A stretch of DNA of 32,000 nucleotides from Candidatus Saccharimonadota bacterium. GTDB taxonomy: Bacteria; Patescibacteriota; Gracilibacteria; Absconditabacterales; Absconditicoccaceae. Below, piece by piece: positions 9,461 through 31,851 of this stretch. Position 1 is the first letter of the stretch. Each line of letters starts with the position of its first letter. The notes beneath the pieces are model-generated. The model was not told the origin of the DNA. It was given only the letters and a program-made list of their open reading frames with translations, and did not search any database. A program made the position numbers and the translations under genes. The DNA lies in assembly GCA_000503875.1 (NCBI GenBank), contig CP006913.1, forward strand, positions 900,001 through 932,000. The letters are read 5' to 3'.

Positions 9461-11560
9461 ATGAACCTCAATCCAAACTATAGATACATTGGTCTCGACT
9501 TCGAAACTACTTGATTAGATTTTTCCAAGGACGAACCAATTCAAATCGGAATAGTCGAAATAGATCATACAGGGAAAATTATCAAAGAATTTTCTTCCCT
9601 ACTCAAACCCACAAAAGATCTAAGTGAACTCAAAACAATAGTCTGATTTATCACAGGAATATCTATCGATGATATAGCAAACGCTCCAACTCCACAAGAT
9701 ATCTTACCACAAATTCAATGATTTTTCACAGATAACACTATTCTTATAGGTCACAACATCAGGTTTGACCTAGAATTTCTTCATAAATTTTTTCCCGAAC
9801 TAAGCTATGCAAACAACATAGACACCTACCCGCTGGCACAAGGAATGATTCACTATCAGTCCAGTTACGCCCTAGAGGTTCTTGTGCCAGGAGAAAATGC
9901 TCACAACGCACTTCAAGATACCAAAAACGCACTTACGCTTTTTCAAAAGATCATCGAAAAAATAGAAAATCTCCAAACGAAATACCCTATCGTTTCGCAT
10001 TTCACCTCACAAGAAATATTTTCTCTCGCTGCATATTTACCAGCAAAAGGCCCAACATTAAACAACGACATCAAAGACATTCCCAGGCTCAACAAAATTA
10101 TGGGTGCAAATACCCAATCACAGGCTAACGAATCTACAATTGATCTCTGACAACTCGAAAATCAAAAAAGATATTATCTAGGAAACACCAATCTCAAAAC
10201 TTTTTTGGAACGTGTTGCTCCCAACAAAAATATTATCTTAGCTTTCTCCAATCTCCAAAAACTCAATATTGCAAAATCAATGCTCAATGCTATGGGTATC
10301 AAAAATCTCGGATTTCTCAAAGATGACCAGATGATTGATTATCAGAAATTTGAAAGTTTTCTCAACAAAACAACATTCACCAATGAAGAAATTTTATTTA
10401 TCTGTAAATATTATTCTCATCTAGAACAAGGATTGGGACTCCTCGATCTCAACACCAAGAGCGATTATCAGATTTATCATTTTCTCAAAAACAAAAAAGA
10501 GAAAACAAGATATCCAATCGTTCTCGCTACCCACCAATGATTATTTAGCTATATTCAAGAAACAACCAACGAATATCAAGATTACGATATCTTATTTTTC
10601 GATGCAGAACGACGATATAAAAGTTATAATTTGTTTCTTTCTCGTCCACAAGATATGTATTATACGCTAAACTTTATAGAAACGCTCCTCTACAAACAAT
10701 TTTTAGAACAAGAGACAAACGCCAAAACCACAAAATCAAATAATCAAAAAATAGCTGCATTTTATACTTCTTTCCAAATTTTTATCGGTCAACTTTTTAT
10801 GGAAAGCAAGCAACTTTTCACAGGAAATAATGCAGAAAGAATACAAAGCAACCCCATTTCCACAGATTCAACTTTTTACAAAACAAATCTTATTTGGAAA
10901 CAGATCATAGATGCGTTGCCAACATTGGAAGACGAAGTCGATCCAAGTGATTTTGAAACAATAAAAAAACAATTTGATCACATTGAGACACTCTTCAATA
11001 CCGTAATTACTATCGAGAAAAAAATGATGAACGATGATATGTATTTCGTCTATAGTGAACATACCCAATATACATCATGGTCAGAATTTATTGAAATTTT
11101 TCCATCAACTATTTACTTTTTTTCCAATAGCGATAAAGCCGCAACCAATTTATTTCCCAACGAACAACCAAAAATTAATATCAAAACAAACAAAATCTGA
11201 CTTTATGACAAAATCGTTTGATATATTACCAACAACAGCCAAACACCACAAGACTACAAACAACAATCTTTTTTTATAGCATCCACAAGGAAAGAAGAAT
11301 CAAAACAATTATTTGAATCTCTCTACAAAAGTAATCTGCATAATCACTATACCATAGTCGCCGAAAACATTACCTGATGAGCCGGAAAAAACATTTTTAA
11401 GTTAAAAAACTCGGCTCCAAAGATTATTATCGGATGATATGCGTTCTTACTCGCTATATATGCAGAGTGTATTTCTCTTGATGAAATCATCGTTTTCAAT
11501 ATAAGAGGAAACAATGAGCAATCGATTTTAGATGACATCCAACGGTATGCCAATAGTTAA
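9461..11560 (+). CDS. DnaQ-family (DEDDh) 3'-5' exonuclease domain with a long DinG-like but apparently degenerate C-terminal region (~699 aa)
   Basis: Frame 2 is open from ATG 9461 to TAA 11558-11560, with junctions checked. Motifs: Exo I IGLDFETT-G(TGA 9512-9514)-LD, Exo II LIGHNIRFDLEFL, Exo III AHNALQDT. I saw no GKT/GKS Walker A in the ~520-aa extension. The C-terminus (KIIIGGYAFLL...IIVFNIRG) recalls DinG-type helicases. Confidence 0.8.
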
Positions 11561-11567
11561 AATCTTG

Positions 11568-12425
11568 ATGAGCGACATTATCAAATTTTTTCTAGCAACA
11601 ATAATTCTTTTGCTAGGATTTTTATGGAAAGGTGAAAAGGTATGAGAAATACAAGAAATACTCTTTTTTCAAGATTATTTAAGCCAAGAAAGTATCGAAG
11701 AACAAATAGAAGAACAAAAAATACATCCTAGTGCACCAGATATTCAAGATACATGTTCTTCTCAAGATCAACTCTGTAAAAAAATAAAAACACTTGAAAC
11801 ACAGGAGATGATTCCTTATAAAAATCAAGTTCATATCGCAACATATTTTATAAACGACAATCAAATTATTGAAAAAAAAATTGTAAATACTATCAAAGAA
11901 ATTGAAATCAAAAATAATGAAGAAGGAAAAAGGGGGTCTGCAACACGAGATACAATAGAACTCAACGTATGACTAACCAATTGACTCAAGGAATTTCAAA
12001 ATCTTTCGACGCATGAATTATGACATATTTTTGATTTAGGGGTAATTCAAGGAAAACAATCGACAAAAAGCAAAGTATTTACTGAAGGGAAAAGAGTCGT
12101 TTTTGCAACAGATGACCCATCATTCTTCTTTTATAAACTATCACGAACATCAGAATCTATTAGAAAGAAAGACGTAAGCAAAAAAGATTTTTGTAGCTGA
12201 TATGGTATGACAGATCCATTTGAAGACTTTTCAGAATGTTTTAACTTATATATCAATAATCAAAATTTTTTCAAATTTATTGCCAAAAAAAACAAGATTC
12301 TCGCGAAAAAATATAATTTTATAGCTACTCTTCTTCAATGACAATATAAAGAAAAAAATACTGAAGCTATATTATTACTAAAAGGAAATACCGCTCGAAG
12401 ACCACGAGATACAACAAAACTATAA
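11568..12425 (+). CDS. Putative membrane-anchored HExxH zinc metallopeptidase-like protein (~285 aa)
   Basis: ATG 11568 to TAA 12423-12425. N-terminal TM helix (IIKFFLATIILLLGFLW) and motif STHELGHIFDLG. It starts 7 nt after the previous gene. Confidence 0.65.
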
Positions 12426-12450
12426 AACATAATTTACATTCAACAAAATA

Positions 12451-13836
12451 ATGCTCAAAAGAAAATTTATCATTAGTACACTAATAATAATACGATGAAT
12501 ATCTCCATTCATTTCTTTTTGAGCAAACGAACAACCAACTTCTTGTGCAGCATGCTGAAGTTCTCCAACTAATTTGAGTTTAATAAATAGTTTTACAACA
12601 GAAATATTAGCAAATATCAAAACTATTTGAGATAAAGATCCATATGCGGGGAAGCATGTTCCACCAAGTCGATATGATTCAGGTAAGTTTGTGGCTCCCA
12701 AACAAAGCATTGTTTCAAAAACGCTTAGACGAGCAAGAGAATCTTTGGGAAGTGTTTTAGCAGTCAAAAGAATCCATTTAGAATTGAGTGATCTAGCAAA
12801 CGTTGGTGATTCACTTGGTGTGTTAGCAAAGAATCATGTTGTTCTAAGGGATCGACAAAAAATGAGTAAAATTGAACAAGATATAAACAGAAAAAAATAC
12901 GAATTATCCGTTGGTTGATGACGAACAGATACCATAGCATGAGTTACTCTTGAAAAAATGCAATCAGTCATCAAAAGATACGAAGAATTATGAATATTAG
13001 ATACTTCAACAATAATAGATGATTGAGCAGAGTATGGAGATTTGATACTTTTATTGTGAAGACTCAATAGTTCTGTAAAACATTTGGTAGCTCTCGGAGG
13101 AGAAGCATGGGCGAAATCAGAGAAAGACGTATTCCTAGACCTCCGAACCAGTTGAGAAGTTGCGATAAAACTAAAGAAAAAGGCGGTAGAAGATATTAAA
13201 GCAGATTATGATTGTACAAAACGATATGCTTGTGAACAGTCTTGGACAAACATAAAAGATGAGATGAAAAAAATAAAAGATGCTTTCAAAGACGGTTTAG
13301 GAAATACTAAAGAACAAATAGCAATTGCCAATCAAAATCTCAAAAAAGCGTATTCTCAAGAAAATCTCAAAAAGACATTTATAACAGAAAATACTCTTGT
13401 AAATCAACTTTCATGAACATTAAAAAATCTAAAAAAACGAAGAGATAAAGCTGTAGAAATGGATAAAGAATACAATGAACGAGAAGATGGTGTATTAGAA
13501 AATCTTGCAAAAAAAGACACAACAATCAAAGATTGAGAAAAAGAAATAGCCAATTCTTTTGCAACAACCAATGATAAACAAAAAATTAAAGATAATTTCA
13601 AAAAAAGAATTCAAGAGACGCAAAAGACTATACAAGATGAAACCAATTCTATGATTGGTAGATACGAAACAAACGATATTTCAGATATTATGGCATATTT
13701 TGTAGCAATTTCTCAAAGGACTAATGGAATAATCAATAAAACAATAGGAAGCAAAGATGAAGGGCTTATCAGTAATTTAGGTGCTCTTTGTGAAAAACAA
13801 TGTAGTAACATCGGAAATAAATCTTGTTATTATTAA
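12451..13836 (+). CDS. Secreted hypothetical protein (~461 aa), partly charged and coiled-coil-like, with a Cys-containing C-terminus
   Basis: Frame 1 is open from ATG 12451 (TAA upstream at 12430-12432) to TAA 13834-13836, checked line by line. The N-terminus is signal-like (MLKRKFIISTLIII..ISPFISFGA). There are many in-frame TGA and nine CGA codons. Confidence 0.7.
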
Positions 13837-13850
13837 TCTTACTATACCAT

Positions 13851-15032
13851 ATGAAAAAAAGAAATGCGCATCAACTAGCAATCAAGTTTATATGAAGCAT
13901 CATCATAATATGTTTATTTTTTTGATGATGGAATTTCGCAGAAATAATAAATACAGAAACCCTTATTTGATGAATTGATGCTATAGAAAAAGCAAGTACA
14001 GATAGAGAAAAATTTGATGAGATGATACTTCATTTTTGTTGAGCAATAACCAAATGAAATGAAGATATTTATGACAGTCACCAATCATTATTTGTATATT
14101 ACATTTGCAAAAATCAACCAAACCCAAATAAAGTAGAAACATACAAATTAGATCCAACTTTCGATCAAAATAAATGATTCTCGGAAAACGCCAAAACATC
14201 ATATACAAGATTTATAGAAGATGATGAAGGAAATAAAATAAATGAATTAGATATAAATCTGCCATCTATGTATTACAATACCGAGGATTATATTCAGACT
14301 TTATTTGATATTATAATAGGAAGTTATACGAGTATATATCAAGCAAACGTTTATGGATATATCAACAATCCAGATAAAACAATAGAGGAAAATATTCACG
14401 ATAACTTTGCAAATAAATATTTTAAAATAGATCCAGAAGAAAATACATATATAAAATTTTGTGCTACTGATGATGAAAAATACAAATACCCAAAAACTTG
14501 TAAAAAACTCAAGGAATATTTTTATGGAGCGTGAAATCTCATAAATTCCAATGAAGAAAATTATTTAAACGATAAAAATATATACAAAACATACGAAACC
14601 AATAAAGAAAGCTGTACAGAGAAAAACAGCAAAAATAATATTATTCCTTGTTGATTATATGGATGAGAAACAAAATATTTTACAAAACTCGTATACAATG
14701 AACTAATGTTTTATGCGCTTTTTGTAGATTATTATTCTTATCTTTTGCAAAATAAATCTGATTTTAAAAATTGGGATGTTATCGAATTTCAAAAAAAACT
14801 CGCAAACAATCAAAACAGAATCCAAGATATGATAAATAATATAGAAACATCTAGAGAAGCAATCCAAACAACAATCAAAATGTTAAAAGAAATTCAATAT
14901 ACATTTCCTATTCATATTGGATTCTTAATGTATAGCGAAGATATCTACAAATTCACAACTAGCATGAATAAAACATTAACTCCAATATACACTTTACACG
15001 ACATCTTGAGAAATGTTCAAAAGACAGACTAG
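13851..15032 (+). CDS. Secreted or membrane-anchored hypothetical protein (~393 aa)
   Basis: Frame 0 is open from ATG 13851 to TAG 15030-15032, checked. N-terminal hydrophobic segment (IKFIGSIIIICLFFGGW). Track pieces 14268..14534 and 14706..15032 share the frame. Confidence 0.7.
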
Positions 15033-17034
15033 AAGAATCAAACAAATTATTATTCTATGAGCTTTATTATGACTGATACTAAGCCTATTTTTTCTCAAAA
15101 AAGAAGTATTTGGTGCTACAATAAACAGTGTATTACAAGGGTTAATCAATACCATAGAAGGTAATGAACCAACAGAAAAATTATTTGAATGAGATGCTAT
15201 GGTAGAAAATATTTACAAAAAAGCTATTAATGGTAAAAAAAGAAAAACAGCAAATATAACAAACATTGGAATAGAAAAAATACAATTTATAAATAGTTGA
15301 GTAACTATAGAAAAAGAAGATCTCTTAAATATCTTATATAATAGCAATAACAATGTAAATGTAGGTATACGTTTTCTATGTAAAACTTGTAAAATTTCTC
15401 CCAGTGATATAAATAAAAGCTATGAAAAAGTAATTTTAGAATTAGAAAAAACACAGGCTATAACAACAAAAAATGACAATGTTCTAACAAGAGCAAAAGT
15501 TGATGAACGAATAAATAGTCAATTTATTATTGCTTCTAATGGGGAAACAGCTTTGACAAAATTCAATGAAGCAACCGTTGGGGAAGATTTATTTATAAAT
15601 GGTGTTGAAGACGATAGTGATTATGATTTACAAATAGACATTGAAAATATAGGAAATCTTTTGTTTGAATCTTTTATAGCTCCTATTGAAACAGTGTTTT
15701 ATAAATTACCACCAAACAAATCCGGCTCTTCATCAAACAATAATGTAAATACTAGCACCGATAAACAAGATCTAATAAATATATTACAAAACACACTCAC
15801 CTCACCATCTATAAATACATGAGTAATAACAAATTGATGATGACAAATTACTAACACGTCAAAAACAACGAATACCAAGAATACCCCAACAACAAATACA
15901 CCAAAAACAACGAATCAAGATATGTCTGATACAGAAATAGCCGATACAACATTACAAAAATTTGTAGATAAAAATACACTAACACAAAAAGCAACAACAC
16001 AATTAGCTGGTATAGAGTGAGATATTTGTAGAGAATGAGTAAGTGCAGGACCAATAACACCAACAGAGGAACAAGAAGAAAACATAAATGCTGAAGACCT
16101 TGATACGTATCTGTCTACTATTCAATGACAAATAGAAACATATGACAATATATATCCAGAAAATCAATACATACCAAATATAACAAACAATCCAGCTTTT
16201 AATGATATGACACCTAGCCAGACAAATCAATTTATTGAGCAATATATAGAAGATCTATTCAAAGTAGAATCAACTGAATCTTGTATAAAGAATTGTAGTA
16301 GTTTACCCTTATCTGAAAGAACTGTTTGTCAAATACAATGTCTATGCTTCACTATGAGCTGGCCAAAAGATCCAGATATAAGAGTCAAAAGTATGAATGA
16401 AATGCTCAAGCTAAGATTTTGTATGGTTCCTGCAAAAAGTATGGCAATACCAAAATGAAAAAATATTTATAGTCTCGATGATATTTTGACAAGAATAGAA
16501 ACAAATATGGGTGATTTGGTTAATTGATGAGATATGGTAAAATTTCAAAAAACCAAAGAATTTTTAGACAATCCTATTGCAGAATTTAGCTTTTCAAAAT
16601 TAATATCATTTCAAATTAATCTCAATATGAAACCGATTTTCAACAACAAATCCGCTATAGCAAAAAAAGATCAAAAAGAAACTTCTATCCAAAAATTAGA
16701 AAAAATAAGTTGAAAAGAACAAACAGTAGGTATTGATACAAATAAATATCTTGTCGTTCAAGATAATGAAAAAAACAAAGTATACAAAAAATATGCTTGA
16801 TCAGTAGAAGAATATCAAAACAATTATGAACAAGCAAAATTAATAAGAGATATGACTTGACGACAAAATGTGTCTATAGATACAAGAAAAATACCTATAG
16901 TAGAAGAAGAAAAAAGTAAGATGTTAACAATTATAGTGGATTTTTTAGAACAAAATCTCACCTTTCGAGAACAGACAGAAAAAGAACTTCAAAATCTAAA
17001 TAATATTGTATTTTCTCTTCAAAGTAAGCTTTAG
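15013..17034 (+). CDS. Secreted hypothetical protein (~673 aa) with a Thr/Asn/Lys-rich linker and a Cys-rich segment
   Basis: Frame 1 is open from ATG 15013 to TAG 17032-17034, checked. Signal-like N-terminus (MFKRQTRRIKQIIILGALLGLILSLFF). It overlaps the upstream gene by 20 nt. Linker TNTSKTTNTKNTPTTNTPKTTNQ; Cys cluster CIKNCSS...CQIQCLC. Confidence 0.7.
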
Positions 17035-17492
17035 GTCAAAAATGCTGCAGTAATAGCTTTCATAATTGCGTATGAAAAAGTAATAACAATAACACCTATA
17101 ATAGCATTTTTTATTGCTGTATTTCATTTTGATGTAGCTCAAGAATCAGCATTAAATATACTAGTAGCGTAAAGATATCCCGCATAAACGATAAAACAGG
17201 CTCCAACAAAAATTCCTATTTCAGACAAAAATTTAATAAGGTATGCTAAATAATCCAATAAAGTATCCCAAGTAAAAATACCCGAAGCCATCTGAGCCGC
17301 TAAATTTCAATCTTCTTGATATTCAGTAGCTTGTCTATTATATTCATCCCAGACATGTCATCATACTCAAACCTCATTTACATCTTTTTCTACGGTATCA
17401 CCAGGCTTAAGTTCTGGTATAATTTCTAAATTTTGAGCAAACAACGATCAATAAAAACCCAAGGAAATAATAAGTATCACAAGGTATTTCAT
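17031..17492 (-). CDS. TrbC/VirB2-like (T4SS-pilin-like) small two-TM protein (~153 aa)
   Basis: The minus frame is open from ATG (17492-17490) to TAA (17033-17031), checked. After a signal peptide (MKYLVILIISLGFYGSLFA) come two hydrophobic helices separated by a short polar loop (FLSEIGIFVGACFIVYAGYLYATS..SGATSKGNTAIKNAIIGVIVITFSYAIMKAI). This is the layout I associate with the pilin-like family common in CPR genomes. Confidence 0.65.
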
Positions 17493-17514
17493 GAGAAATA
17501 TATAAAAAATAAAG

Positions 17515-18357
17515 TTATTTTGTACAGGTATCTGATAGTGGTGCTTGTTTAACTAATGTATTGAAAAGACTGGAAATAGCAACAAACTTATCAAATAGTT
17601 TCATCAATCTATCTTGCACAAATTGTTTAGTATAAGATGTTAAACCATCAACTAACAACGTTGCTGCATTATATTGAGATATCATTATAGCCAAAGATGT
17701 TTCTTGTCTTATTCTTGCCTTAACCATAGACAAACATCTACCATAATATCAATCATTTACTATATCTATATTACGAAGATTTAATCATTGATAATACATC
17801 ATCATCGACATAAAACAATAATTAATATATTTATCGTGAAGATTAAATCACTTACTTTCATTTATTATATTACGAAGAGTAGTCGCGTAATTACTTGATT
17901 CATAACGAGAAAAAAGATAGGTTCAAGATAACATCCAATATTTTAAATAATATTTCTGAAAAATTTTGGGCGTTTTAATCTGTTCAGTATTTTTTACAAA
18001 TTCTCTCCATATTTTTCATTGAGGATCTGGTTCCATATTAGGATACATAGATTCTGCATCTAATTTTCTGAGTCCAACATCTATCAAATGATCATACCAA
18101 TAAGGACTTTCTGCTCCAAAAACAAGATTATCACATTTTCAAATCAAAGCAGAAAGATCCGCTCTATTTGTACAACAATAAGATCTTAAGTGATCGCGAG
18201 CAATTTCTAAATCATTTGCTGGCAAAAAGTTTTCAAATAATGACCAAGAAGCAACTACAGAAATAGATTCACAATCGTCTTTTGCAAAACTAAACGCAGA
18301 AAAAAAAACAACAAAGATCAAACAAAATCAGAATATTTTTTTGGTTAAATTAGTCAT
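17515..18357 (-). CDS. Secreted Cys-containing hypothetical protein (~280 aa)
   Basis: The minus frame is open from ATG (18357-18355) to TAA (17517-17515), with all triplets checked. Signal peptide (FGFCLIFVVFFSAFSFA). Track pieces 17515..17733 and 18139..18321 share the frame. Confidence 0.7.
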
Positions 18358-18410
18358 GACCAATAATAAACAAGAATAAAACTATCGACTATTAACTATA
18401 AGCCATTAGC

Positions 18411-21400
18411 TTATTTCATAAGACGAGTTTTTGTCGTAATTCTTACAATATCTTTTTCCAAGAAATCTTTGATAACATAAATAACCGAACGAGTTGTTGT
18501 ATCATAACGATACTCACCTACAAGTGATGTTGATGCTAATTTTGGAATATAAATCTGACCTATAGGAGAAATATACAAGATACATTCCTTATCTAAAGAT
18601 TGGATACAACTTCATCCAAAGAACGATCCAAAACTTGGTTGCGTAATATCTATCTTGGTATAAAAAGGTTCTTTCTGATATAAGGTAACATCATTCAATG
18701 CAAATGCTGGCATTTGAATCCAAAACACTGTCGTTGATGTTTTTTTATTTAACACACGAACCAATGGATATCAAGTAATTAAATCGAGCATCACTGTATA
18801 GGTATCTTGATATGCAGGAAGAATTGTTATATTTCCATCAATTGAAATCTGACCTATTTCATTTCAACGATCATCATAAAGTCCTACTGTATTTCACATA
18901 CTAAAAACAGATCACGTAACAATAGTTTGTTTTGGTCAGACAGAAAATCATCAATAGCTGTTAGCCAAAGTACCTGACATTTCTTGCCAAAGATCATTTC
19001 TTTGTCTTTGAAAGATAACCATTCATTCATCTATATCATGAGATAATTCAGCAACAAGTTTGCCAGAAAATTCCGATACAGGGACAAATTCTTGTAATGC
19101 AATATTTGGTATTTGTATATCCAAAGTAGCTTTTTCTAATTGTCTATTTCCATTAAAATCTTCTGCTCCTATAAGATATTCCAAAGAATTTACACCAGTA
19201 AAATATAATCAAGTAATTTGGATATTTCCTGTTTGATTGGTTCCTGTCGAAAAAGAGATTAATTTACCATCTTTTTCAATCCACATATTAGATACAGCAA
19301 CATTATCTTTCCAATCAACAACAAGATTATAATATGTTCATACAAATCATTTATGACGTGATCAAGTACTTACTACCTCAGAAATAGATGGTCTTTGAAG
19401 CGTTATAACTGCTTCTGGTCAGACCATATCAGCAATAATTTGTCTTCCTGCAACTATTTGATTAGACCAAGGTCATTGAGGAATATAATAAGGATTTTCC
19501 AATGTATTGGTATTTTTGAGTGGTACAATTTCTGCATATTGCCAATTTCTTGGAATCTCATTTAGTCCAATCGATATTGTTGGTTGAGTTGGTTGATAAA
19601 ATTTTATTCCATAAATCAATTCTGAATACGTTCATCCAGAAAGGAAATCCAGAACATCCCTTGCTTTGCCAGCATCTTTACCTTTATAATAATATCTTTC
19701 TTTAAAATCTATTGTTGCTCAAGAATAATTTGTTTGATTAGGTAAGATCAAAATATATCTCTTATTCAAAAACTCGTCATCCAAGAAACGGAAATTACTA
19801 TCTTTATCTTGATAGGTATCTATCCTGTGATTTAATTTAATGAGATACCCATCTGCAGGTTCTCATAAAACAGTATGATTTGTCCAAGACATCTGAATAG
19901 CATCAAATGATTGTCCAACCATTTTAAAATTTTTCACTTCTTGAACAGGAGAAATCAGTTTTACAGAGATATCTCAAAAATCAACATATCACTCATCATC
20001 AGCTTTTTTAACCAAATCCTCATAAGAATCAGCAAAAGAAGATGAAAAAATACCCGGTGAATAAGTATATAATGATGTTGTTGTATCAGAATTTTTATGT
20101 TGAGATTCTTGTTTAGCATACTTAACATAAATAGTATTTGTGTCCCACATAATTAAATCTTGTCCAAGATCTTGGTTAATATCTGCTGAAAAATAACGAT
20201 CACGTATTTTTGTTACATATGGTTGAGATCTTACCACATTGATCATAGTTCATGATTGTGGATTTTCGACAAAGACTCAACGAACATAAGAAGAAATGTC
20301 AGATGAAAAATTAGTTGTCGGAGAAGTTGTTGGTGATGATGATGTTTGACTAAGTAATGGTTGATCCGAAGATGTCTCATTGCTAGCTATATAAGGAATT
20401 CAACAAGAAGCATAACTTATTTTATCAAATCATAATTTATCATATACATCATCAATAGTTGATTTCATTCCTTCTAAATATTCTGTTGTTTGCTCATAGT
20501 CAGACTTTGTCATACGAAGCTCATCAGGAGAAGATGTCGAAAGCGTTTCAAGATATCAATTAACCAACGTTGCATTGGTATCCATATATGCTTTAAAAGG
20601 AGATTCTTGTTGTTCGATAAGATCGTAGGTCTCTTTGTTCGTTGTAAACAACGGTGAGGCAAATGAAATTTCAATACGATCATCGTCAACCAAAGCAATA
20701 TCGTTACGTTTTAGTTGCGCTACAAAACGATCGTATGAGGAAACTGTTTTAGTTAATTCGCTAATTTCTTTTTGTTTTTTGATTAAAATAGTCTGAATTT
20801 CTTTTTGTATTGATTGAAGTTCTTTTGTAGCTGGAATAACAACAGCTGGTTTTTGTAAAACAGAGTTGATCTTTCAAATATCTTTTTGAATATCTGGATC
20901 ATCAACACGCATAGCAAATTCTTTAAGTCAGGCAGAAAGTTGTTTATATGCTACATCATATTCCAATGTTGGTGTTTCAGAAATCAATCAATCAAGCGGA
21001 ATATCAAGCGGTGGAACAGTAAAGTCTAAATTAACGTCTTGTATATCTTTGTTCAGAAAATCCATAACTTTATTGTTCTTTAATCCAGAAGTAGCTTGGT
21101 TAACTGCTTTGGAATATGAATTAGAAACATTATATGAAAAAGAATTAGCTGTCTCTGCAATTTGATTTAAGAATCCATAAAATCATGAGAAATCCATTTT
21201 AAATTGCAAAAAGCCATCAAGTTGTAAATCAAATCATTGAGGTTTTGGATCAGTTTTCCAAGTAAATGTTTGATTGAAAAAATCGAAAATAGGTACATCC
21301 CACGTTCTTTGTGTCATTTGTTCAACCTTTGCCTTTACTCACTCTTCTCCCACAAGACCAAATCCTTTTTTCAAAATACAAAATATTTTTACTACAAAGT

Positions 21401-24400
21401 CTGCTATCTCTATAATCGAAGATATCTCTGGAATAATATTTGGAATTTTTGGTGCTGGTGGAAGTAACGGTAATGAAAAATCTATCTTCGGAATAAAAGA
21501 TGGTAACTCTGGAAGAGTTGGTGGTTCAGGCAACAAAGGAATTTCTGGCAAATCATAATTAAATTGAATAGAAAAATCAAATCACGCTGCCAAGTTAAAG
21601 TCAGGAGGTGTAGGTAAATTAGGCAATTGTGGTAATGGAAAATCTACTGGTGTAAAAACAAATCTTGGTAATGCTATACTAATACCCATATCAACATGAG
21701 AAAGATCTATGTTAATGTTTGGAATTTTAAAAGCTGGTATAGGTATGATTGGAATTTGAGGAAACAAAAATCCGAGACTACAACCATGAGATCCATAACC
21801 ATCACGTGAACATTTTCCACATTTTTTTGTCCAGTTTACTGATAGATCTATAATTACTTGCCAAGTTTTTATAGCTGACAAAATAAGGACTAATGCATCA
21901 ATTCGCTTAGCATAAATTTTCGCATTTACATTTACCCATCAAATCAATGTAGATGATAATGTAGAAACAAAATTCATAATATCCGCCATATACCTATCAA
22001 CAAAGTGCATCCAATCATACAATTGCAATGGAAATTGTTTATATTTTTCCAAAATTTGAATATTCTGTTGTACATTTTTTACCAAAGAAGTAGCCTGATT
22101 ATAAAAAGAAGTAAATCAATCAATGTCTGCTGAAAATGTTGCGCATGTAGAAAGACTACTAACTCTATCCTGAATATGTAACAATAATTCTCTATCTTCA
22201 GCTGTTGGGTTTGGTTTTGCACGTAACCAAACTTCTGTTGTTTTTAATCTTGGAAGAGAAATTAATTTTTGTGAGAAAAATTGAAACTGTCTACCTATAT
22301 CAGTAAATACAGCAGGAATATCATCTATAATAATATTTCCTGTTTGAGTAACAATATCTCAATTAATAACTTTTTGAAGAAATATTTTTTCTTTTCATGC
22401 CGAATCAATGAGTTTCTTAAGTGTTGTTGATTGCTTATTCATTTTGTTAATTTCAATTATTTCTTCTTCTAAGAGAACAAGATCTCTCTTTGCTTGAGCA
22501 GGTGTTATACCTCCACAAATAGAAGCCAATTCATGAATAGCCTCGAGCCATTGTTTAAGTATTTTTTGTTGATTTTTAAGCCATCATCTAAGATAACTAT
22601 CATATTTCAAAAGATCATCAGTTGTTGGTAATGGAATTTTGAAAACAATATCTTTCGTATATAAATCCACCAAAGGAACTGATTGAAACATAGTGATAAG
22701 AGATTCAAATGGATTGTTTACTGAAGATGTCATTGCGTTAAAATTTTGTTTTGATCAAATAGCCTTAAGATTATCTAAAGTACTTTGATCCTTAGAAACA
22801 TTTGCATAATTAGCATCATCTTCTTGTGATTTTTCACTTGCGTCTGACCAATCTGCTGCAGAAAACAATGAATCAAATCCATCTGCTAATTGAGAAACAT
22901 CTGGTAAGGTAACATTTATAGTAAGTTTAGTCAGATTATTAATCATATATTTAACTTGTCTACCCAACCAATCTTTGACTAAGGATTTAATAATTCCTTT
23001 TGCATTACTATCCTTAATTTTGAGATCTATCTTTGGTCATTTAACAAAACTCAATGCATCAAAACCAAAACCACTTTCCATTCATCAATAAGAGGTTGTA
23101 CTACGTTTTTTTGTTGGTTTTGAATTAAATGAAATATATCCGAATCAGCCAAAATTTCAATTTGGAACTGCCATTGTCCAAGAAGAATTTTGAGATCCTA
23201 ATGAAGAAAGTCTAAAAGCTGATGGATAAGTAGGTTGTTGAATAATCAATGTATTTGATACTACTTTTGCCGATGATTGTTGAAGTGGTTGTTCACAAGA
23301 ACCATTATTTGCTAAATCAGACATCCAAGGTTCTAATTCTTCTGTAACTGGTTCATCACCAGATCATGATCATCCTCCATTACAAGCATATAAAGGAAAT
23401 GCTACGACAACACAATTTCCTCACAAATCCCTAAAAAGAGGTGGGATAGCTTTTCAAAGAGTTGTTGGTCCAAAACAAATAGCAACTCCCATTTGAAGTG
23501 TTAATGTAGGCACAAGGTAAAGTCTTACCCAAGATGAATAAGATCATACTTGAGGTCATCCAATAAAAAAGTCATCGCTACCAGCCATTCTCACAGGAAA
23601 CCCAAAAATATCTGGCAAAGGAAGGTATCCAGCTGGCGTTGGTCATCGATTACCAGGCACACTGAGAACAGGAAGTCCTTTTCCTAATGTACTACTAATT
23701 GGTTTTAAAAGATTTTGAAAACATCCAAAAATATGATATTCTCATGCCCCCAAAAACGCTTGATTGAATGGTATTTTATTAAAAGGAACTGGTGGTTGAC
23801 AACCGGCTTTTGCTCACAATTTAAATCACTGACAAAGACCATCAAGAATTTTATCTATGTCTTCTGAAACAGGTGCCATCAAAGTATCCAAAGCTTTCAT
23901 ATCAAAAGAAAGATTTGCCTGTCACTGAGAAAACAAATCGGTAACTGTCCATGATTCAAAAAGACCATCCATATCAATTTGATCAAGTATATCATTAACA
24001 CCATCTTGATAATTCGATGCTGATGATCAAGAAGCAAAAGAGTCTGAAGATGTAGTTGGCATTGATCATGCCAAAAGAGCATCTCATTCAGCTTGTCACT
24101 TAGCAGTATATACATCTAATTTCGCTTGAATATTATCATATACTTCATCATAGTTTCTATGACTTTGCGAAGAATTATTAAAAAATACTCGTCTATATTT
24201 TTTACAACTATCTGCCGGGAAAACAATAATATCAGAATATGTATCTTTTTTCTTGTTTGCATCAGAAAACAATACATCCTTAACTTCTATAGAAACCGTT
24301 GGCTCTCAAAGATAAACAACATCATAAGAAAAACGTAAAGACTGACGAAAATCTAAATTAATATCATCTAATACAAAAAGAGCTTCATCGGAATCCAGCC

Positions 24401-27400
24401 ATGTAATATTTTCCTCGGTAAAATTGCCCAATTCTTTTTTGAAAGAAAGTATTTTGTCTGCATCATCAGACAAAATTTCCCAAGGTCAAATCAAGCGGTC
24501 TATATATGTCGCCTCAATATTATTTTTTAGTCAGAGAATTGTTGTCGTTATTTTAACAACATCTCAACTCAATAAAACACCACCATTATTATCTTTGTAT
24601 TGCTTATATACACTAAGAGATGCATCACCAGAAAGTTGAAGAAGCGTTTTGTATCATATATCATCCAAAGAAGAATTTTCTTCATAACTAGGGATATAAG
24701 AAATAGGAGCAACTGTTAATTGGTTTGAAAGACTATCAGCAGCAAGATTTTGAAAAGAATTTGCCATTCATCAAACAAAACTTCACAAATCAAGATCCCC
24801 CATTTCTGGATTCATAGAACCTGTATCGGTAACCAGGTCATTTACTTGATCCGAAGATATTGGTGTCTGAGCATCGATACTCCAGCCTTTAACATGAACC
24901 ATACTTTCATCTTGAATATAGAAATCTGGTTCTATAACTACGCCATAACTCTTCACCAAACGGACGCTTTCTTTTTGTCTAGCATGCCAATCATCATCAC
25001 AAGCATATTGCAAAGTAGACACATAATGTCATTGTCCATTTTTAGATCAACCATAAAATATTTTAATATCTCATATAACATCATTGGTAACAATATCTAT
25101 ATTTCCATCTTTATCCATATCCTCAAAAAACAATTGCTGTAATCATGCAACAGATTCTGGATTTTTTTGGATTTTTGTTCCATCAGCATTTATATTTAAA
25201 CATATCATATTCCCATCAACATCGAGAACTCATTTATCATTTTTATAGACTCTCAATTGTTGATTATTTGTCCATACCAATATATCTGGATAATTATTTC
25301 AATCAACATCTCCTACAAAAATATCTTTAATACTATCAGACAAACGCATCAAGTCTTGCATGTTTGTATAAGGATGCGTTCCTCAATAATTTTTTAATAA
25401 TTTGATAGTTCCATCACTAAACACAGTTATAATATCTGTAAGCCCATCATTATTAATATCAGTATTCAAAACTTTAAAAATAGCCTTTGATGTATTAGTA
25501 TATACTTGTTCACCTATTCATAAATCAAGATCAACAGATTTTATTTCGACATTTTCAGATATTCTAGACAATAGTGGATCTCAAAAATTTATAAGAAATT
25601 GTGAGCCAAAAGGGATTGTTGATTCTCAAACCGTTTTTCCATCACCAAATAAAGTAATGTTTTTAAAATCAGATCTAAATCCAATTCCTTCTGCATAACT
25701 TGTACTATCTTCTATAGAAAGATATCCTTCTTTTTCAAACGTCCCCAAAAGATCAATAATTCAGATTCCTTTTTCTCAATTCGTTGTTCATTCCGCAAAG
25801 GTTATTGTTTTATCATATGCAATACTAGAATAGACAACAACTTCAGATAAATCTAATGATTTATTTGCTGCTTGAATAAAATACAATTTTCAAAGCTCCT
25901 CTTCTTGATAAATAACATTCCAAATACTATATCCTTGATCCATTTTTTCTGACAACTCAATAGACAATCATGAATTCCAAATATCTTTTTTGAAATTAAA
26001 TAATACTTCTCCACTAAATGATAAACTATTATCAGTAAGTTCAAAATTTAATTCTTGTAAAGAAGTGTTTTTAGAAAATACCAAAGAAGCCGAATCTTTT
26101 TTAGACAATTCTTTTGCTGTCTGAAATGGATCTTCAGATGAAAAAAGTGTAAGCGGTTTTGCCTGAGTAAGTGGAATATATCAAATTCCATCAAATTCTG
26201 CAACCAAAGATCATGAAAGAATTTGTAAGGTAACTTCACGTTCAGAAAAATTACGAACTTGACCATGCTCAGAAACAACAGCTGCAAATTTTTTGATACG
26301 TGATGGCTCTACAATTTGGGTAGTAACTGACAAAAGTTTTTCAGAAGAAGAAACTAAATCAGGTACATATGAAGGATCCAAAGCATCTTGTGTCCAAAGA
26401 TTTCATCGATCAGAACCAAAAAGATTAAGATACATAACATTAAGTTTTTTTTCAGGGAGAAATTTTTCTTGAATAACTATTTTTTGATAAGCGGGTGATT
26501 GTTGTTCTAAAGCAAGATCATTTATAGATGCATAAACATATCAAATTCCACCTTTTTCTTTTGTTTTTAAAGAGAAATTATATTGCTCATCACTTACTTG
26601 AACAATTTTTGAAGGAAAATCTAATGCTCAGGTAAATCCCAAAACCAAAGATGTTGGTGTTGAAATAGTATTGCCCCATGCGTCGGTAACAGACAACGAT
26701 CCGCTCAAAGATTCTCAAATAGAAAGAGATGCTGCTGATGTAGTAAGATTAACATGATATGGTTTTCATGAAGTAACAGTAACGGGTATAATTATCGGAT
26801 CTAAACCAGGAATTTGTATCCAGATTTCATCAGTTCCTGCACGATAACTTGGCATAAGAAAGATAGCTTGCTCTGCTTTTTCCAGAAAGAAAGATCCCAA
26901 AGAAACAAAATTTCCCGAAGAGACAACTCAAGGAGTAACCAATCAATTTTTACTAAAAATAGTAAATGGTGTTTGTAATTGAGAGCCATCTTGAGCGCGC
27001 AAAGAAACAATAATTCTCGGTATTGTAGAATAGGTAGAGTCAATTTCTGTAAGAGTAAATTCTAATTTTGATTGTGCTTTATTGTTGGTATAAAGTTTTT
27101 TTGATCAAAAAGATACTTGAAAATCCCCTGGGGTAACAGTAATCGTTTTTTTGGCACCAGCATCTGCTCACGTAAGAGAAAATGTTACTGTGGTCGGTTT
27201 ATTAACAATTGGTGCCTGGTAAACAAGCATAGTATTATCAAAATCAGAAAACTCCATACTCTGTGGTCAAGGAAGTCCTCCTCATATAAATTCTCAGTTT
27301 CCTGTAGCAACATAAACGACATAAGAATCCATAACTCTTGAAACAGAATTACCAGAAAAATCTTTAGCAGATATTGCTATAGGTAATTGCGATCATGCAA

Positions 27401-30400
27401 GAAGTTTTGTTGTTGGAATTTCCAAAGAAAATGTTTTGATTTTTGGTAATAATGAAGTATCATCTCAATCAATAAGAACAATATTTGATCGATATTCTGA
27501 AATATTTCCAGAAAAATCAGCTCATGGAGATTTTTCAGAATTTGTTATCTTACTAAAAGAATTTTTCCAATCATCAAAACTACCCTTCAATCACGATAAG
27601 AATTCTCCAAATGATGGTCCAACTTCCATAGATACATCAAATTTTACTGAAGAACCCAAGGTACTCCACCAACATTGTAATGCAGTAATCCAAGGCATTT
27701 TTCATTTACCTTCTTTTTCTTTTAGATCAAAAATAAGCTCTGTATAACTAGAATCTATTCAACATTGACGTCTTGTCGCAGAAAAAAGATCATTTGATGC
27801 CAAAACAGAATCCTCAATAAAAGTATTGGCAACTGTTTTTTTGTTATCTTGTAATTTTTGGATAAATTTAGGTATTTCTGCAGCAGAAATATAATCAGAT
27901 CTATCAGAATTAATATAAGCGACTTCATATCATGAGGCATTATACGCTGGTGTAATCAGAGATCATTGATCTGGATGTTGAGTAAGATATCCTGAAACAA
28001 TATATGATATTTTTTTGTTTAAATCAAATGCTGTTCTAGTGGCATTCAAATCTTTATCTACATACGTTTCTTTTTGTTTTGTATAGACAGGCAATGTTTG
28101 ATAGTATAATAATTCAGCCAAATCATAAATACGCTGTTTACCAATCAATGACACAAAGAAATCTTCTGGCAAGTAAACAGTAGAACGAGTATTTGGAGAC
28201 GCAAGTGAATCTGAAGTAGCAAGAAAATTAAACGCCGCTGGATTTTTATTGTAATGTTGTTGACGAGTTTTTTCTTGAGCCAAAAGAAGCGTATTATATT
28301 CTTTCGTTTTTGATAAAAGATAATCGAGCATCGATTGATTGATTTCTTCTATAGTCTTAAGGGTAAGAATAGATCATTCTTGTTTATATACCGGTATATC
28401 ATACACATTTGGATATACAAATGTCACCAAGCTTCATCACAATCATTGGAATGTTATACTTCTTGGTCAATCTATTGGCCTATCTGCAGTTGTTTGATTA
28501 AGTCATGGTGTTTTTGTTAGTGGTGGTACTTTATCAACTGTTTTAATTGAATTAATTCCAGACAAAACAAGCGGAATATCAGAAAGAAAGCCTGTTTCTG
28601 TGGCTGCATCTTCAAATGAAGCTTCAAATCATGAAAGAATTTTTATTTCTATAGGCGTAGGTGTTCAATCAATATCCTCAGTAACTGTTGTTGTTCTAAG
28701 TGTATAAAGTGTTTGAGATAAATTATTCAATGATCAGGTAAGTGCATCTATGTAATCACAAACCTGTTTATAAAGATTTGCACATCAACAATAATTAGCA
28801 GTTACGGTTCAACAATTTTGAAGATCATTTATATTTTTTCTCTTTGTTGCCAACAATCATGTAGCAAAAGCATTTGTTGTTGTAATAGATGTATACACTC
28901 AGTTAATCTGAGCAAAAGAATTTGGTAATGAATTATATTGATTTCTTATAATAATAACCTTTTTTTTCAAATCATTACTCCAACCAGAAAGAAATTGTGT
29001 TTTTTGATTGTAGAGCGATTCTATTTCTTGTATTCTATCAAAATAAGACAAAACTAATCAAAAACTCAATGCTGGTAACAAATCAGAACTTTGTTCCAAT
29101 GAAGAAAAAACTCAAGAAAAAGTCTCAATATATTCTTGGTGTCCTGTTTGAGAAAGAATATTTTTAGCTCAAGACAACAAAACAAGAGGATCAGAAGATG
29201 TTAGAGAGACAAAAGAATTAATACCAGAATTAATTTCTTTATTACCAGAAAGCAAAGACAACAAACCAGAATAAGATTGAGAAAAAGAAAGTTTAGAATC
29301 CTCTTGAAGGGATAATAATTCAGTGTTTAAATAATCATAATGTTTCCAAAACAATCCTTGTTCAGAAAATTCATTTTGATAGGTCCCATTAATTTGATCA
29401 GGCGTTGGAGCTGTGTTTTTTACTCTAGAATCTATTGTTTTGTAGGTATAATCAAAGATTTCTCTTTTCCCATCACATTTTCATCACATAGAATCTGAAG
29501 ATTTTCGTTCTTGATTTATTCAATTTACATCAATAGTTTTCCATTTTTTACTTCACTTATCATCGGATTTATTCCAAATAGAAAAATAATCAAGCTCCTC
29601 ATATGATTTACGAATTTTTTTTGTACCAATAAGTTCTCTATATCAATCCTGTTCAGAAGAGTAAATATCCAATGGGTATACTTCAGCATCTTTATCTCAT
29701 TTTAAATATTTAGGATAATCCAATACTCAATAACGATCTTTGACTTTGATAACCGAAGGAAATGATTTTGCACCCAAAAATGAATATGCTGCAGTTTTTC
29801 CTGTAGCAACAGCAGAAGATCAACCTATATTATAAATAGGAAACATTGCTGATAAATAATCATATTGTTGAAGTTTATATACCGGAGGATTTGCAGACAA
29901 TGCACCAGAATCTAGATTAAGACTCGATGCTCATCATCGACCTCTAAGAGAAAAATCTTCTACAGTTTCATCTTTTTCTCAAACACTTTTTGTCTTTTTT
30001 GTCATACAAAAAATATCTATTCGCAAAATCCTAAAATATCTACTACAGCTTATTTGTTTTTTTTGTTTAACTTTATTTTCATTATAGGTGTCATAATCAC
30101 CGGCAGCCGCCATAATATTATATCCTCTATTTGCCTCTACTTGTGTAGCAAAAAGACTATTACTAGCTCCTAATGTTTTTCCATTAGAAGAACCATATCC
30201 TGTATTCAAAAGAGCAACTCCAGAAAAAGAATCTAAATTTCTAAAAGTTCATCTATACGCACTAAATTCTTGTGCTGAAACTATATCTTGAGCAAATGTA
30301 CCAAAATAATAATTTTTATAGAGATCATTTGTTGTTCTTTCACACCAACGTTTAGGAAATATTCAGATTCGTTTCTTTTTGTTAGTTCGATCTTGATGAA

Positions 30401-31598
30401 GAGATTCTGCTATAACAGGGATCGTCATATACCAATTATTGCTCTCAATCTTTTTATCCAATGCTTCTTCCATAGCATCATTAAATGAAATCATAATAGG
30501 CGATATTCATTTTCATGCATCTCAAAGAGTTAGAGAATCTTTCAATGCTACTTTATGGATATGAGAATCTACTCCATCAACCCGTTCTCCACTTCCTGTC
30601 TTTTTATACCATCTTGCTGCGGCCTGCGTGTTGTCTTTGATTGTTGACAAAAAGACACCAGGATAAAGATTTTCATATCTCGTGATTAATTCTTTTATAA
30701 CAGACAACAACATAGTTGTTGGAACACTTGATTCACCCAGAGCATCAAAAGTACCAGCTCATGATAACATAATTTGGGTTAATTCTGGGTTGTTTTGAGA
30801 GACACTTGCCAATCAATCAATCAAATCAGACATATCATCATTTTGAACTTGTTTGAAATAATCAAGCATCAAATTGGTAAATCTATGATATCATATATCC
30901 TCTGTAAACAAGAAATTATTGATATAGAAAGGGAGTGTATCTTCAGCAAATGTTGTTTTCATTGCAACAAAATCATCATACCATAGAAGTGGTGCGACGA
31001 AATCAGCTGGGGCAGCTGCATATTTTCTTAATTTTTGGAAAAAATCATGATATTTAGAATCTTCTGATCAAAAATTAAGTATTCAATGCCAGATTTCCGC
31101 CTGCCCCCTTGGATTATTGTTATACACAAAAAACTGTTGATTTGCATCATAGACAAATTGTTGCTCTTCAAAATCTACATACGGAAAAATCGTAGGATAG
31201 ATAAATCCATTATTTTGAACAACTGGCAACGGAATATCTCAGATAAAAACAGCTCATAACAAATCAGATGTTTCTCATTTTATACCATCAAAATACATAT
31301 TTTCCAACATTCTCACCACATCAATTGCTTTGAAATTTTGAGTATTAATAGGTAAAACCAATGCTTTAGAATTGGAAATACGTTGTTGAATATAATCAGT
31401 AGCATACCATTCAATATCACTTTTTGCATTTTGATAAATATCTTTATCTACAAAAACAGCCACCAAATGAGTCCTATCCAAGGGGTTTTCTGCAAAAACA
31501 GATCAAAAATCAACAAAAAACCAACTCTGTAAAAAGTAGGACAAAGAATATATAAGCAACAAAAGTCAAATCAAATGCCTTTTATGCAAAAAATACAT
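18411..31598 (-). CDS. Giant secreted/surface protein, ~4,395 aa, as a single ORF under table 25
   Basis: I checked every minus-strand codon in the frame whose plus-strand triplets start at positions divisible by 3, either by hand or via the ten same-frame track ORFs (19989..20246 through 31275..31481). No TAA or TAG occurs between TAG at 31760-31758 and TAA at 18413-18411, and well over 100 in-frame TGA are present. The ATG at 31598 gives a signal peptide (MYFLHKRHLIGLLLLIYSLSYFLQSWFFVDFGSVFA/ENP). An alternative ATG lies at 31649. Confidence 0.85.
21415..21790 (-). other. Proline-rich periodic module within the giant ORF
   Basis: FPQIPIIPIPAFKIPNINID ... FPLPQLPNLPTPPDF ... LPEIPLLPEPPTLPELPSFIPKIDFSLPLLPPAPKIPNIIPEI, with recurring (I/L)P-x-(I/L)P units. 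Confidence 0.55.
25040..25470 (-). other. FG-GAP/VCBS-like calcium-binding repeat block within the giant ORF
   Basis: Four spaced DxDxDG-type motifs in beta-strand context: TDINNDGLTDIITVFSDGTIKL, VGDVDGNNYPDILVWTNNQQLRVY, LDVDGNMICLNINADG, EDMDKDGNIDIVTNDVIGDIKIFYGG. Confidence 0.5.
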
Positions 31599-31851
31599 GC
31601 TTGTTTTTCAAGATAAAACTTTCAAACAAAAACATAACAAACAATACATCGCAACTATACAAAAACAAAATCAAAAATAAACAAAAAATCAGATTTTATA
31701 TGCTTTTTCAAATTGACAATTAACGTTAAATGTATACCATCTCTTATGTTTGATCCACTATGGCAAATTTAGGGTTTTAAATATGAAAAAATTCATTATT
31801 ATAAAAAAGATGACAACAATATATTTAGTCACTAATTAAAAAATCTAATAT

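Follow-up and report, generated by a model that had tools for sequence, protein, structure and literature searches.

Gene content and genetic code

The locus described here occupies positions 11568 to 31598 of a 32,000-nucleotide (nt) stretch of DNA, referred to below as the window, from a genome of the Absconditabacterales (assembly GCA_000503875.1, contig CP006913.1, positions 900,001 to 932,000 of the forward strand). It consists of two converging operons. Four genes, which we denote A to D, lie on the plus strand, and three on the minus strand encode, in the order of transcription, a giant protein (G), a secreted cysteine-containing protein (F), and a small protein of a type IV secretion system (T4SS) pilin family (E). 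This coupling of a single VirB2-like pilin gene to an orphan secreted protein and a giant surface protein is the subject of the present analysis.

Genes in the window were called in genetic code 25, where UGA encodes glycine, and all proteins were analysed as code-25 translations. A table-11 reading of the window yields short, fragmented open reading frames (ORFs); with TGA as a sense codon the genes become long and tightly packed. The assignment of TGA to glycine holds at the codon level. In each of four orthologous loci the positions of TGA codons in G are occupied by GGN or TGA, with zero to one TGA aligned to TGG per locus, and the TGG codons of G pair mostly with TGG in the three closer orthologues. 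Database entries translated in code 4 carry tryptophan at positions where other entries carry glycine. The pilin-like protein E is 100% identical to the hypothetical protein P148_SR1C00001G0839 of candidate division SR1 bacterium RAAC1_SR1_1.

On the minus strand, G (18411-31598, 4395 amino acids [aa]) belongs to the FG-GAP/VCBS family and is predicted to be secreted or N-terminally anchored, F (17515-18357, 280 aa) is predicted to be secreted and all-alpha, and E (17031-17492, 153 aa) is VirB2/TrbC-like. On the plus strand, A (11568-12425, 285 aa) is a predicted membrane-anchored protein of the zincin type with an HExxH motif, B (12451-13836, 461 aa) is a predicted secreted protein, and C (13851-15032, 393 aa) and D (15013-17034, 673 aa) each begin with a transmembrane (TM) or signal segment. 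Spacing is narrow throughout: 7 nt between an upstream exonuclease gene and A, 25 nt between A and B, 14 nt between B and C, and an overlap of 20 nt between C and D; on the other strand, 53 nt between G and F and 22 nt between F and E. An earlier annotation prepared without database searches (the first-pass annotation) had listed these coordinates and spacings, and they were exact in the code-25 ORFs.

D ends in TAG and E, on the minus strand, in TAA; the two stop codons share bases within TTAG at 17031-17034, which leaves zero spacer where the two operons meet. In near relatives this junction measures 3-25 nt. No terminator-like hairpin was seen between the convergent genes D and E, in a scan of AT-rich DNA, where promoter and terminator scans say little. 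A hydrophobic N-terminal segment (Kyte-Doolittle 19-residue mean of at least 1.65) was found in seven of the seven products, as expected from the earlier proposal that all of them are extracytoplasmic. No paralogy was found among the seven products.

The pilin-like protein E

The T4SS_pilin profile PF18895 matches E over residues 77-145 (17058-17264, minus strand), a part made of two hydrophobic helices and a loop, with E = 3.8e-4 and 20.9 bits (cut-off 26.6). A further match was obtained to NF045849, which describes a pilin-like conjugal transfer protein of a Mycoplasma integrative and conjugative element (ICE; E = 1.3e-3, 18.4 bits, cut-off 40). More than 100 homologues of E were found, and where the source is named it is Absconditabacteria, SR1 or Patescibacteria. 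About 26 of 100 homologues (E-values to E of 1e-11 to 1e-93) have precomputed PF18895 assignments. Among the aligned members of the family, 8/21 match PF18895 with an E-value of at most 0.01 (best 2.2e-7) and 1/21 matches the TrbC/VirB2 family PF04956 (2e-4). As judged from these profile matches the E family is homologous to T4SS pilins, an assignment that applies at the level of the family, E itself being sub-threshold. It is at this level that the pilin-like call of the first-pass annotation holds in profile searches.

Hydrophobic segments of E span residues 1-22, 84-112 and 126-149. In an AlphaFold2 (AF2) model (pLDDT 71) residues 75-113 and 119-151 form helices joined by a short loop. E thus has pilin-type topology, with a signal peptide followed by a two-helix hydrophobic hairpin. 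Atypical for a pilin is a conserved stretch of approximately 55 residues, predicted to be extracellular, that lies between the signal peptide and helix 1 and outside the pilin profile.

The secreted protein F and the giant protein G

F was noticed earlier as a Cys-rich secreted protein next to the giant, and this description was confirmed: the protein has a signal-like N-terminus and eight cysteines, seven of which are conserved. No match to Pfam, NCBIfam or PHROGs was found for its sequence. The AF2 model of F, built from the code-4 translation (98% identical), has a pLDDT of 76 and a pTM of 0.63, is all-alpha, and ends in a 69-residue C-terminal helix; against the PDB it gave no fold match with E < 1. 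The possibility that F is a minor pilin of the VirB5/TraC type was considered and rejected for lack of a fold match, and in Pfam and NCBIfam its sequence gave no such match either. A HMMER scan of 1.84 billion representative sequences placed the F family in 265 clusters at 50% identity, with lengths of about 270-345 aa among the full-length matches listed.

The sole Pfam match in G is to PF13517 (FG-GAP_3), with E = 1.3e-8 and 35.7 bits against a cut-off of 26.9, in two stretches within residues 2047-2108 (25275-25460, minus strand). This match spans less than 6% of the protein and lies in a region resembling an FG-GAP/VCBS beta-propeller (residues ~1950-2200; 24999-25751, minus strand). No relative of G was found among PDB sequences. 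An alternative ATG at 31649 would extend the protein by 17 aa. Over 160 homologues of G were found; the 120 that were listed measure 3,000-5,900 aa, in nearly all cases above 3,900 aa, and align collinearly with almost the full length of G. Homologues that have names are called VCBS or FG-GAP repeat proteins and come from Absconditabacteria, SR1 or Gracilibacteria; most carry PF13517 or PF01839. In the family alignment the most conserved blocks lie at about residues 50-240, 1950-2200, 2590-2740 and 3250-3430, and strong hydrophobicity is conserved in one segment only, at the N-terminus (residues 9-27). G looks like an exported protein of fixed architecture and not like a mosaic of variable adhesin repeats, because its conservation is collinear and full-length, unlike that of typical variable repeat adhesins. 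The earlier label of giant adhesin needs qualification, the FG-GAP repeats being all that suggests adhesion.

The plus-strand genes A to D

A carries HELGH at 12012-12026, and the first-pass annotation was correct in placing an HExxH protein among the plus-strand genes. The orthologues of A share an invariant HExGH..DLG motif and, approximately 65 residues downstream, PFEDFxEC. All nine orthologues searched match PF15887 (Peptidase_Mx) at E 0.05 or better (best 5.5e-6), six match Peptidase_Mx1, and four match ATLF, the anthrax lethal factor domain family. A is predicted from these motifs and matches to be a membrane-anchored, zincin-type metallopeptidase-like protein (clan MA). The zincin assignment is made at the level of the family because A itself scores below the cut-off of PF15887 (16.8 bits, cut-off 27). 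An in-frame ATG at 11532, 36 nt upstream, would make the gene overlap the exonuclease gene by 29 nt; it may be the true start, since the orthologues in loci L009-L011 likewise begin MTSNGMP.

A was found in 11 loci only, all of them from close relatives of the window genome. In 18 loci its place ahead of B is taken by an unrelated protein of ~500 aa with a TM segment and TPR repeats. This protein was considered as a diverged A and rejected, as it has no HExxH motif, gives an hhalign probability of 0.1, and is a TPR protein instead. Within the plus-strand operon, A counts as accessory.

B, which is rich in helix and coiled coil and has conserved cysteines at both ends, was found in 33 loci; its profile returned only coiled-coil noise against PDB sequences. 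C has conserved cysteine pairs and a conserved C-terminal helical region, occurs in 35 loci, and gave nothing in the same comparison. A weak NCBIfam match of C to Mycoplasma Mbov_0283 lipoproteins (E = 0.0045), seen in one of ten orthologues, was set aside as a chance match. In D a T/N-rich linker joins a conserved N-terminal domain to a Cys-rich one, and the gene stands beside E in 36 loci. No Pfam, NCBIfam, PHROGs or PDB match was found for D, and its orthologues gave no Pfam match either. With the weak C match aside, B, C, D and F had no match in Pfam, NCBIfam or PHROGs and constitute orphan families. An extracytoplasmic location fits all four because of their conserved cysteines. The earlier count of five products with no recognised family is thus borne out by B, C, D, F and most of G, and F has no fold match in the PDB in addition.

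Conservation of gene order

Loci for comparison were obtained by exact-protein look-ups of E and G homologues and by scanning the species representatives of GTDB with an alignment of the E family (48 loci). For each locus, code-25 ORFs were compared with the window proteins and with hidden Markov models of the families. Synteny was counted over 54 non-redundant loci with an E homologue, and the denominators below are the loci with enough flanking sequence.

F lies directly upstream of E on the same strand in 46/52 loci. A giant of the G family precedes them in 38 of 46, which gives the trio G-F-E, and D-C-B converge on E in 28 of 40, with the end of D less than 100 nt from E in 18 of these 28. 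In more distant relatives the order is kept at 21-31% protein identity for B, C, D and F, and the trio is kept at 29% identity of G. The flanks of the distant trios differ, being either genes for ribosomal proteins or RNA polymerase together with BipA, or DNA polymerase III delta' and UvrB. On the far side of the B-C-D operon lies the DEDD exonuclease in the clade of the window genome, where it adjoins A in close relatives only, and SecY with ribosomal proteins in other clades. Dozens of species-level genomes share the arrangement within differing flanks, which is far beyond what chance would produce.

The linkage is unequal. F-E is the deepest unit and in a distant clade occurs without the giant, G-F-E extends across the Absconditabacterales, B-C-D joins it in a large subclade, and A is present only near the window genome. 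Gene order is conserved across Absconditabacterales and Gracilibacteria-labelled genomes, as the first-pass annotation had suggested should be examined. Its view of the two operons as one system must be amended, since G-F-E, and more deeply F-E, is the core and the plus-strand genes are linked to it less widely.

Secretion ATPases and mobile-element genes

The flanks of the window were read from contig DPJE01000005.1 (GCA_003543185.1), which contains the window, over 6-10 kb on each side. No VirB4-, VirD4- or VirB6-like gene was present in the window or in these flanks, in agreement with the earlier statement that this is not a canonical T4SS locus. When A to G were scanned against Pfam and NCBIfam, and the families of A to D were searched as profiles, there was no match to VirB3/PrgI, VirB6/PrgH, VirB8/PrgL, TrsD or a coupling protein. 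The absence of a recognisable secretion ATPase in or near the locus, likewise noted before, extended to the ~54 loci. Apart from D orthologues, the Walker-A proteins of 450-1300 aa in the 54 loci are FtsK, DEAD-box-helicase-like and GTPase-like proteins, which we judge to be housekeeping proteins; FtsK was confirmed by Pfam and the other two classes were assigned by sequence motifs alone. An FtsK-family ATPase near E in locus L048 was considered as a coupling protein and rejected, since it has the full FtsK architecture of alpha, motor and gamma domains.

VirB4, the hallmark of every T4SS, was reported in 2,417 of 3,035 Patescibacteria assemblies, in all classes sampled (PMC12102498). In the same survey VirB2-like pilins were found in 1,948 VirB4-containing assemblies but near virB4 in only 1,135, so that pilins lie away from virB4 in about 40% of pilin-bearing Patescibacteria. 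In the class Gracilibacteria T4SS genes are dispersed, TrsD and VirB3 homologues are mostly not beside virB4, and VirB6 was not detected; no adhesins were found in the survey (PMC12102498). Because T4SS genes are dispersed in Gracilibacteria, a distant VirB4 ATPase is likely in the present case as well. Since patescibacterial pilins often lie away from virB4, the lack of an ATPase in the window is not in itself a sign of an undescribed apparatus. The earlier conjecture of such an apparatus was thus accurate in its observation that no ATPase is nearby, and weakened by the fact that VirB2-like pilins distant from the ATPase had already been reported.

GC content is flat across the window (0.27-0.34). 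Searches of the window and its products for tRNA genes and for Rfam and PHROGs families gave no match, and in Pfam and NCBIfam scans no integrase, relaxase or coupling-protein family was matched among the seven products or the flanking genes. Past the end of the window lie MgsA, divergent from G, and SecA; ahead of its start lie ribonucleotide reductase, nitroreductase and AhpC. These flanks place the locus among housekeeping genes. The locus is a vertically inherited core module and not an acquired island or ICE, because composition is flat, tRNA genes, integrase and relaxase are absent, and it is present in 38/46 sampled relatives. The term island used in the first-pass annotation must therefore be abandoned.

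Interpretation of the locus

We favour, with evenly divided confidence, the interpretation that G-F-E is the surface-exposed, pilin-associated part of a patescibacterial T4SS-like apparatus whose ATPase is encoded elsewhere, that F and G serve in host contact, and that B-C-D, with A in the window genome, are co-inherited envelope partners. The module would then be a cell-envelope unit of the Absconditabacterales with G-F-E as its core operon and with all three products exported by Sec. G may be released from its N-terminal hydrophobic segment or held by it, and would show on the cell surface its FG-GAP/VCBS propeller together with ~4,000 residues of lineage-specific structure that is conserved in length. 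F would be a disulfide-stabilised, all-helical secreted protein. E would insert in the membrane as a hairpin of the VirB2/TrbC type and act as a pilin-type subunit of a patescibacterial, MPF-FATA-derived type IV secretion apparatus, presumably building a filament and depending on a VirB4 that is encoded elsewhere, as is usual in the class Gracilibacteria. F and G would be associated physically with E as pilin-associated surface components that touch the host or prey cell, and may serve as the adhesin that the survey of patescibacterial T4SS did not detect (PMC12102498). In most Absconditabacterales B-C-D would add exported envelope proteins, together with the zincin A or the TPR protein, and in the window genome A may process exported components.

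Several results weigh against this interpretation. Neither pilin model is matched by E at its curated cut-off (20.9 bits where 26.6 are required, and 18.4 where 40 are), and a Foldseek comparison of its model with the PDB gave a best E of 0.57, to generic helical hairpins and bundles only, short hairpins being poorly discriminated by such comparisons. F matched neither VirB5/TraC nor any other structure in the PDB. No VirB4-like ATPase was found within 10 kb of E in any of the ~54 loci (~1 Mb in total). In the lineage of loci L005 (2-7981) and L006 the giant upstream of F-E is unrelated to G, and a distant clade (L054, L055, L059) has F-E without any giant; G is therefore not obligatory for F-E.

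In the main alternative, E is uncoupled from type IV secretion and serves as a small membrane subunit for F and G, for example as an anchor, a docking site or a pore-forming hairpin, within a lineage-specific attachment or predation device that requires only Sec. We regard it as possible, though somewhat unlikely. It would account for the finding that neither a T4SS ATPase nor any other T4SS gene stands beside E in any locus, for the conserved ~55-residue extension of E outside the pilin profile, and for the length conservation of G, which resembles that of a machine part more than that of a variable adhesin. E is moreover a single-copy gene that follows F (46/52 loci), whereas other patescibacterial T4SS clusters contain pilin arrays, and VirB6 homologues are reported absent in Gracilibacteria (PMC12102498). 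Against it, the homology of the E family points to T4SS pilins and no sequence sign of an anchoring or pore function was seen. To our knowledge every characterised VirB2-type pilin is VirB4-dependent. VirB4 has also been reported across the classes of Patescibacteria, Gracilibacteria included (PMC12102498). A bolder form, which we think unlikely, holds that G-F-E with B-C-D is an undescribed contact apparatus of predatory Absconditabacteria, in which E has been freed from VirB4 and the Sec-exported structure attaches to or breaches the prey envelope. If true, the locus would encode a new kind of cell-cell interaction device and not a T4SS accessory.

Two further explanations concern the extent and the origin of the locus. 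The functional unit might be F-E only, with or without G, and A-D might be unrelated exported envelope proteins, e.g. for maintenance of the cell wall or surface, that are merely syntenic in small, stable genomes. B-C-D are indeed absent in nine loci with at least 8 kb downstream of E (L007, L041, L044, L048, L057 and L058, and the F-E-only loci L054, L055 and L059), A is swapped for the unrelated TPR protein in 18 loci, and the E/D junction tolerates insertions of 0.5-7.5 kb. We nevertheless consider this explanation quite improbable: D-C-B converge on E in 28/40 loci despite identities of 21-31% and differing outer genes, and the junction often measures only a few nt, with overlapping stop codons in the window. 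The idea that the locus is what remains of an integrated conjugative element or of a prophage-derived island, with a leftover pilin gene and surface proteins, draws on the weak resemblance of E to the Mycoplasma ICE protein (NF045849, E = 1.3e-3) and on the view that patescibacterial T4SS derive from monoderm conjugation systems (PMC12102498). It is effectively refuted by flat composition, by the lack of tRNA genes and of any integrase, relaxase, coupling-protein or PHROGs match, and by the presence of the module in essentially all sampled Absconditabacterales at housekeeping positions.

Comparison with known systems

The nearest systems known are the patescibacterial T4SS of Southlakia epibionticum (SEML1_0006-0019) and Nanosynbacter TM7x, which share the pilin family (PF18895/TrbC-like) with the present locus (PMC12102498, PMC10633639). 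They likewise occur in host-dependent bacteria, are of the monoderm type, lack a relaxase, and often have pilin genes away from virB4. The pilins clustered with the Southlakia T4SS are essential for epibiotic growth (PMC10633639). In the present locus, by contrast, the pilin gene is single-copy and not part of an array, its product has a conserved N-terminal extension, it forms an operon with F and with a 4,400-aa FG-GAP protein, and no VirB4, VirB3, VirB6 or TrsD is nearby.

Two better-known apparatuses offer more limited parallels. The T-pilus of Agrobacterium and pKM101 consists of the major pilin VirB2 and of VirB5 (TraC), a minor, tip-located helical protein. Its likeness to the present locus is one of kind only, in that a small hairpin pilin is encoded with a secreted, signal-peptide-bearing protein that is predicted to be all-alpha and of 220-300 aa. 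F, however, has no sequence or fold similarity to VirB5/TraC, and there is here neither an outer membrane nor a set of VirB3-B11 genes. In the Gram-positive conjugative T4SS of pCF10, PrgB is an LPXTG adhesin of ~1,300 aa, PrgK is an NlpC/P60-CHAP hydrolase, and VirB2-type pilins are absent. This system resembles ours in being monoderm and in encoding a large exported surface protein with its mating-channel genes, and in one relative of the window genome an NlpC/P60 gene lies between G and F. It differs in that PrgB is unrelated to G and in that systems of the pCF10 type have no VirB2-type pilin. PrgB has no known homologue in Patescibacteria (PMC12102498).

Giant proteins themselves are not without precedent. 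Vampirococcus lugosii, a predatory Absconditabacterium, encodes giant membrane proteins of up to 4,163 aa with integrin-type domains that were proposed to function in attachment (PMC8080830), and in Omnitrophota giant genes are conserved beside pilus and secretion genes (bioRxiv 10.1101/2023.11.21.568195). We set these beside G by description: all are very large exported proteins that carry interaction domains and come from small bacteria living as predators or epibionts. Unlike them, G is conserved over its full length and is not a mosaic. A description of an operon that links a pilin to a giant protein, or to F, was not found in the literature searched. The patescibacterial T4SS pilin is a known theme; what is new is the fixed linkage of F, an orphan helical protein, and G, a length-conserved FG-GAP protein of 4,400 residues, with one VirB2-like pilin, away from any ATPase.

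Absconditabacteria (SR1) are ultrasmall, and their cultivated members kill bacterial hosts by contact. In this lineage a single VirB2-like pilin gene is locked in an operon with a lineage-signature FG-GAP protein of 4,000-5,000 residues and an orphan secreted protein, and this holds across deep divergence. The locus ties the survey result of pilins without an adhesin to the giant surface proteins of Vampirococcus. It nominates G, F and E, and then B-C-D, as candidate host-contact genes, and gives a handle for asking whether the pilin works without a neighbouring VirB4, or without any.

Variation among relatives and other genes of the window

The giant of the L005/L006 lineage contains SBBP-like beta-propeller repeats, repeated Ig/Fn-like modules and a LamG-like region, and is followed by an extra 210-aa gene. 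In the distant clade without a giant, F-E converges in three of three loci on a pair of genes of ~250 and ~265 aa (L054 10451-11986, L055 10498-12030, L059 4848-6428), one of which carries internal hydrophobic segments. A gene for an NlpC/P60 cell-wall hydrolase (PF00877, E = 1e-14) lies between the G and F homologues at L007 8229-8831 and L008 6140-6550; the relative with this gene has no B-C-D operon at the site. Insertions of 0.5-7.5 kb at the E/D junction were seen in loci L022, L025, L026, L029, L031, L032, L035-L038 and L042. They were considered as a hiding place of T4SS parts and rejected; by inspection, and with no family search, the inserted genes seem to be accessory ones, and their products include Fic-like, methyltransferase-like and duplicated secreted coiled-coil proteins.

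The exonuclease gene upstream of A (9461-11560, plus strand) encodes a 699-aa protein. Models of DEDD 3'-5' exonucleases and of the DinG N-terminus match its residues 7-172 only, and the remaining ~520 residues gave no match. Further upstream, two adjacent genes, U1 and U2 (2549-4027 and 4033-5529, plus strand), encode single-TM proteins of 492 and 498 aa, for which there was no credible Pfam or NCBIfam match and one weak Pfam match below the cut-off only. A homologous pair with 31-33% identity is present in another Absconditabacterales genome (L049 15018-18386), 5 kb from E. U1/U2 were considered as a part of the system and rejected; the neighbours in L049 look by eye like housekeeping genes (UvrC, ThrRS, TruD, MurB and ValRS), and we take the proximity to be positional. 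Near the start of the window (978-2171, plus strand) a single 397-aa code-25 ORF encodes a YidD-like membrane-insertion factor (PF01809) and, in fusion with it, an entire methionyl-tRNA formyltransferase, the latter composed of Formyl_trans_N and Formyl_trans_C; table-11 calls break this ORF into four pieces.

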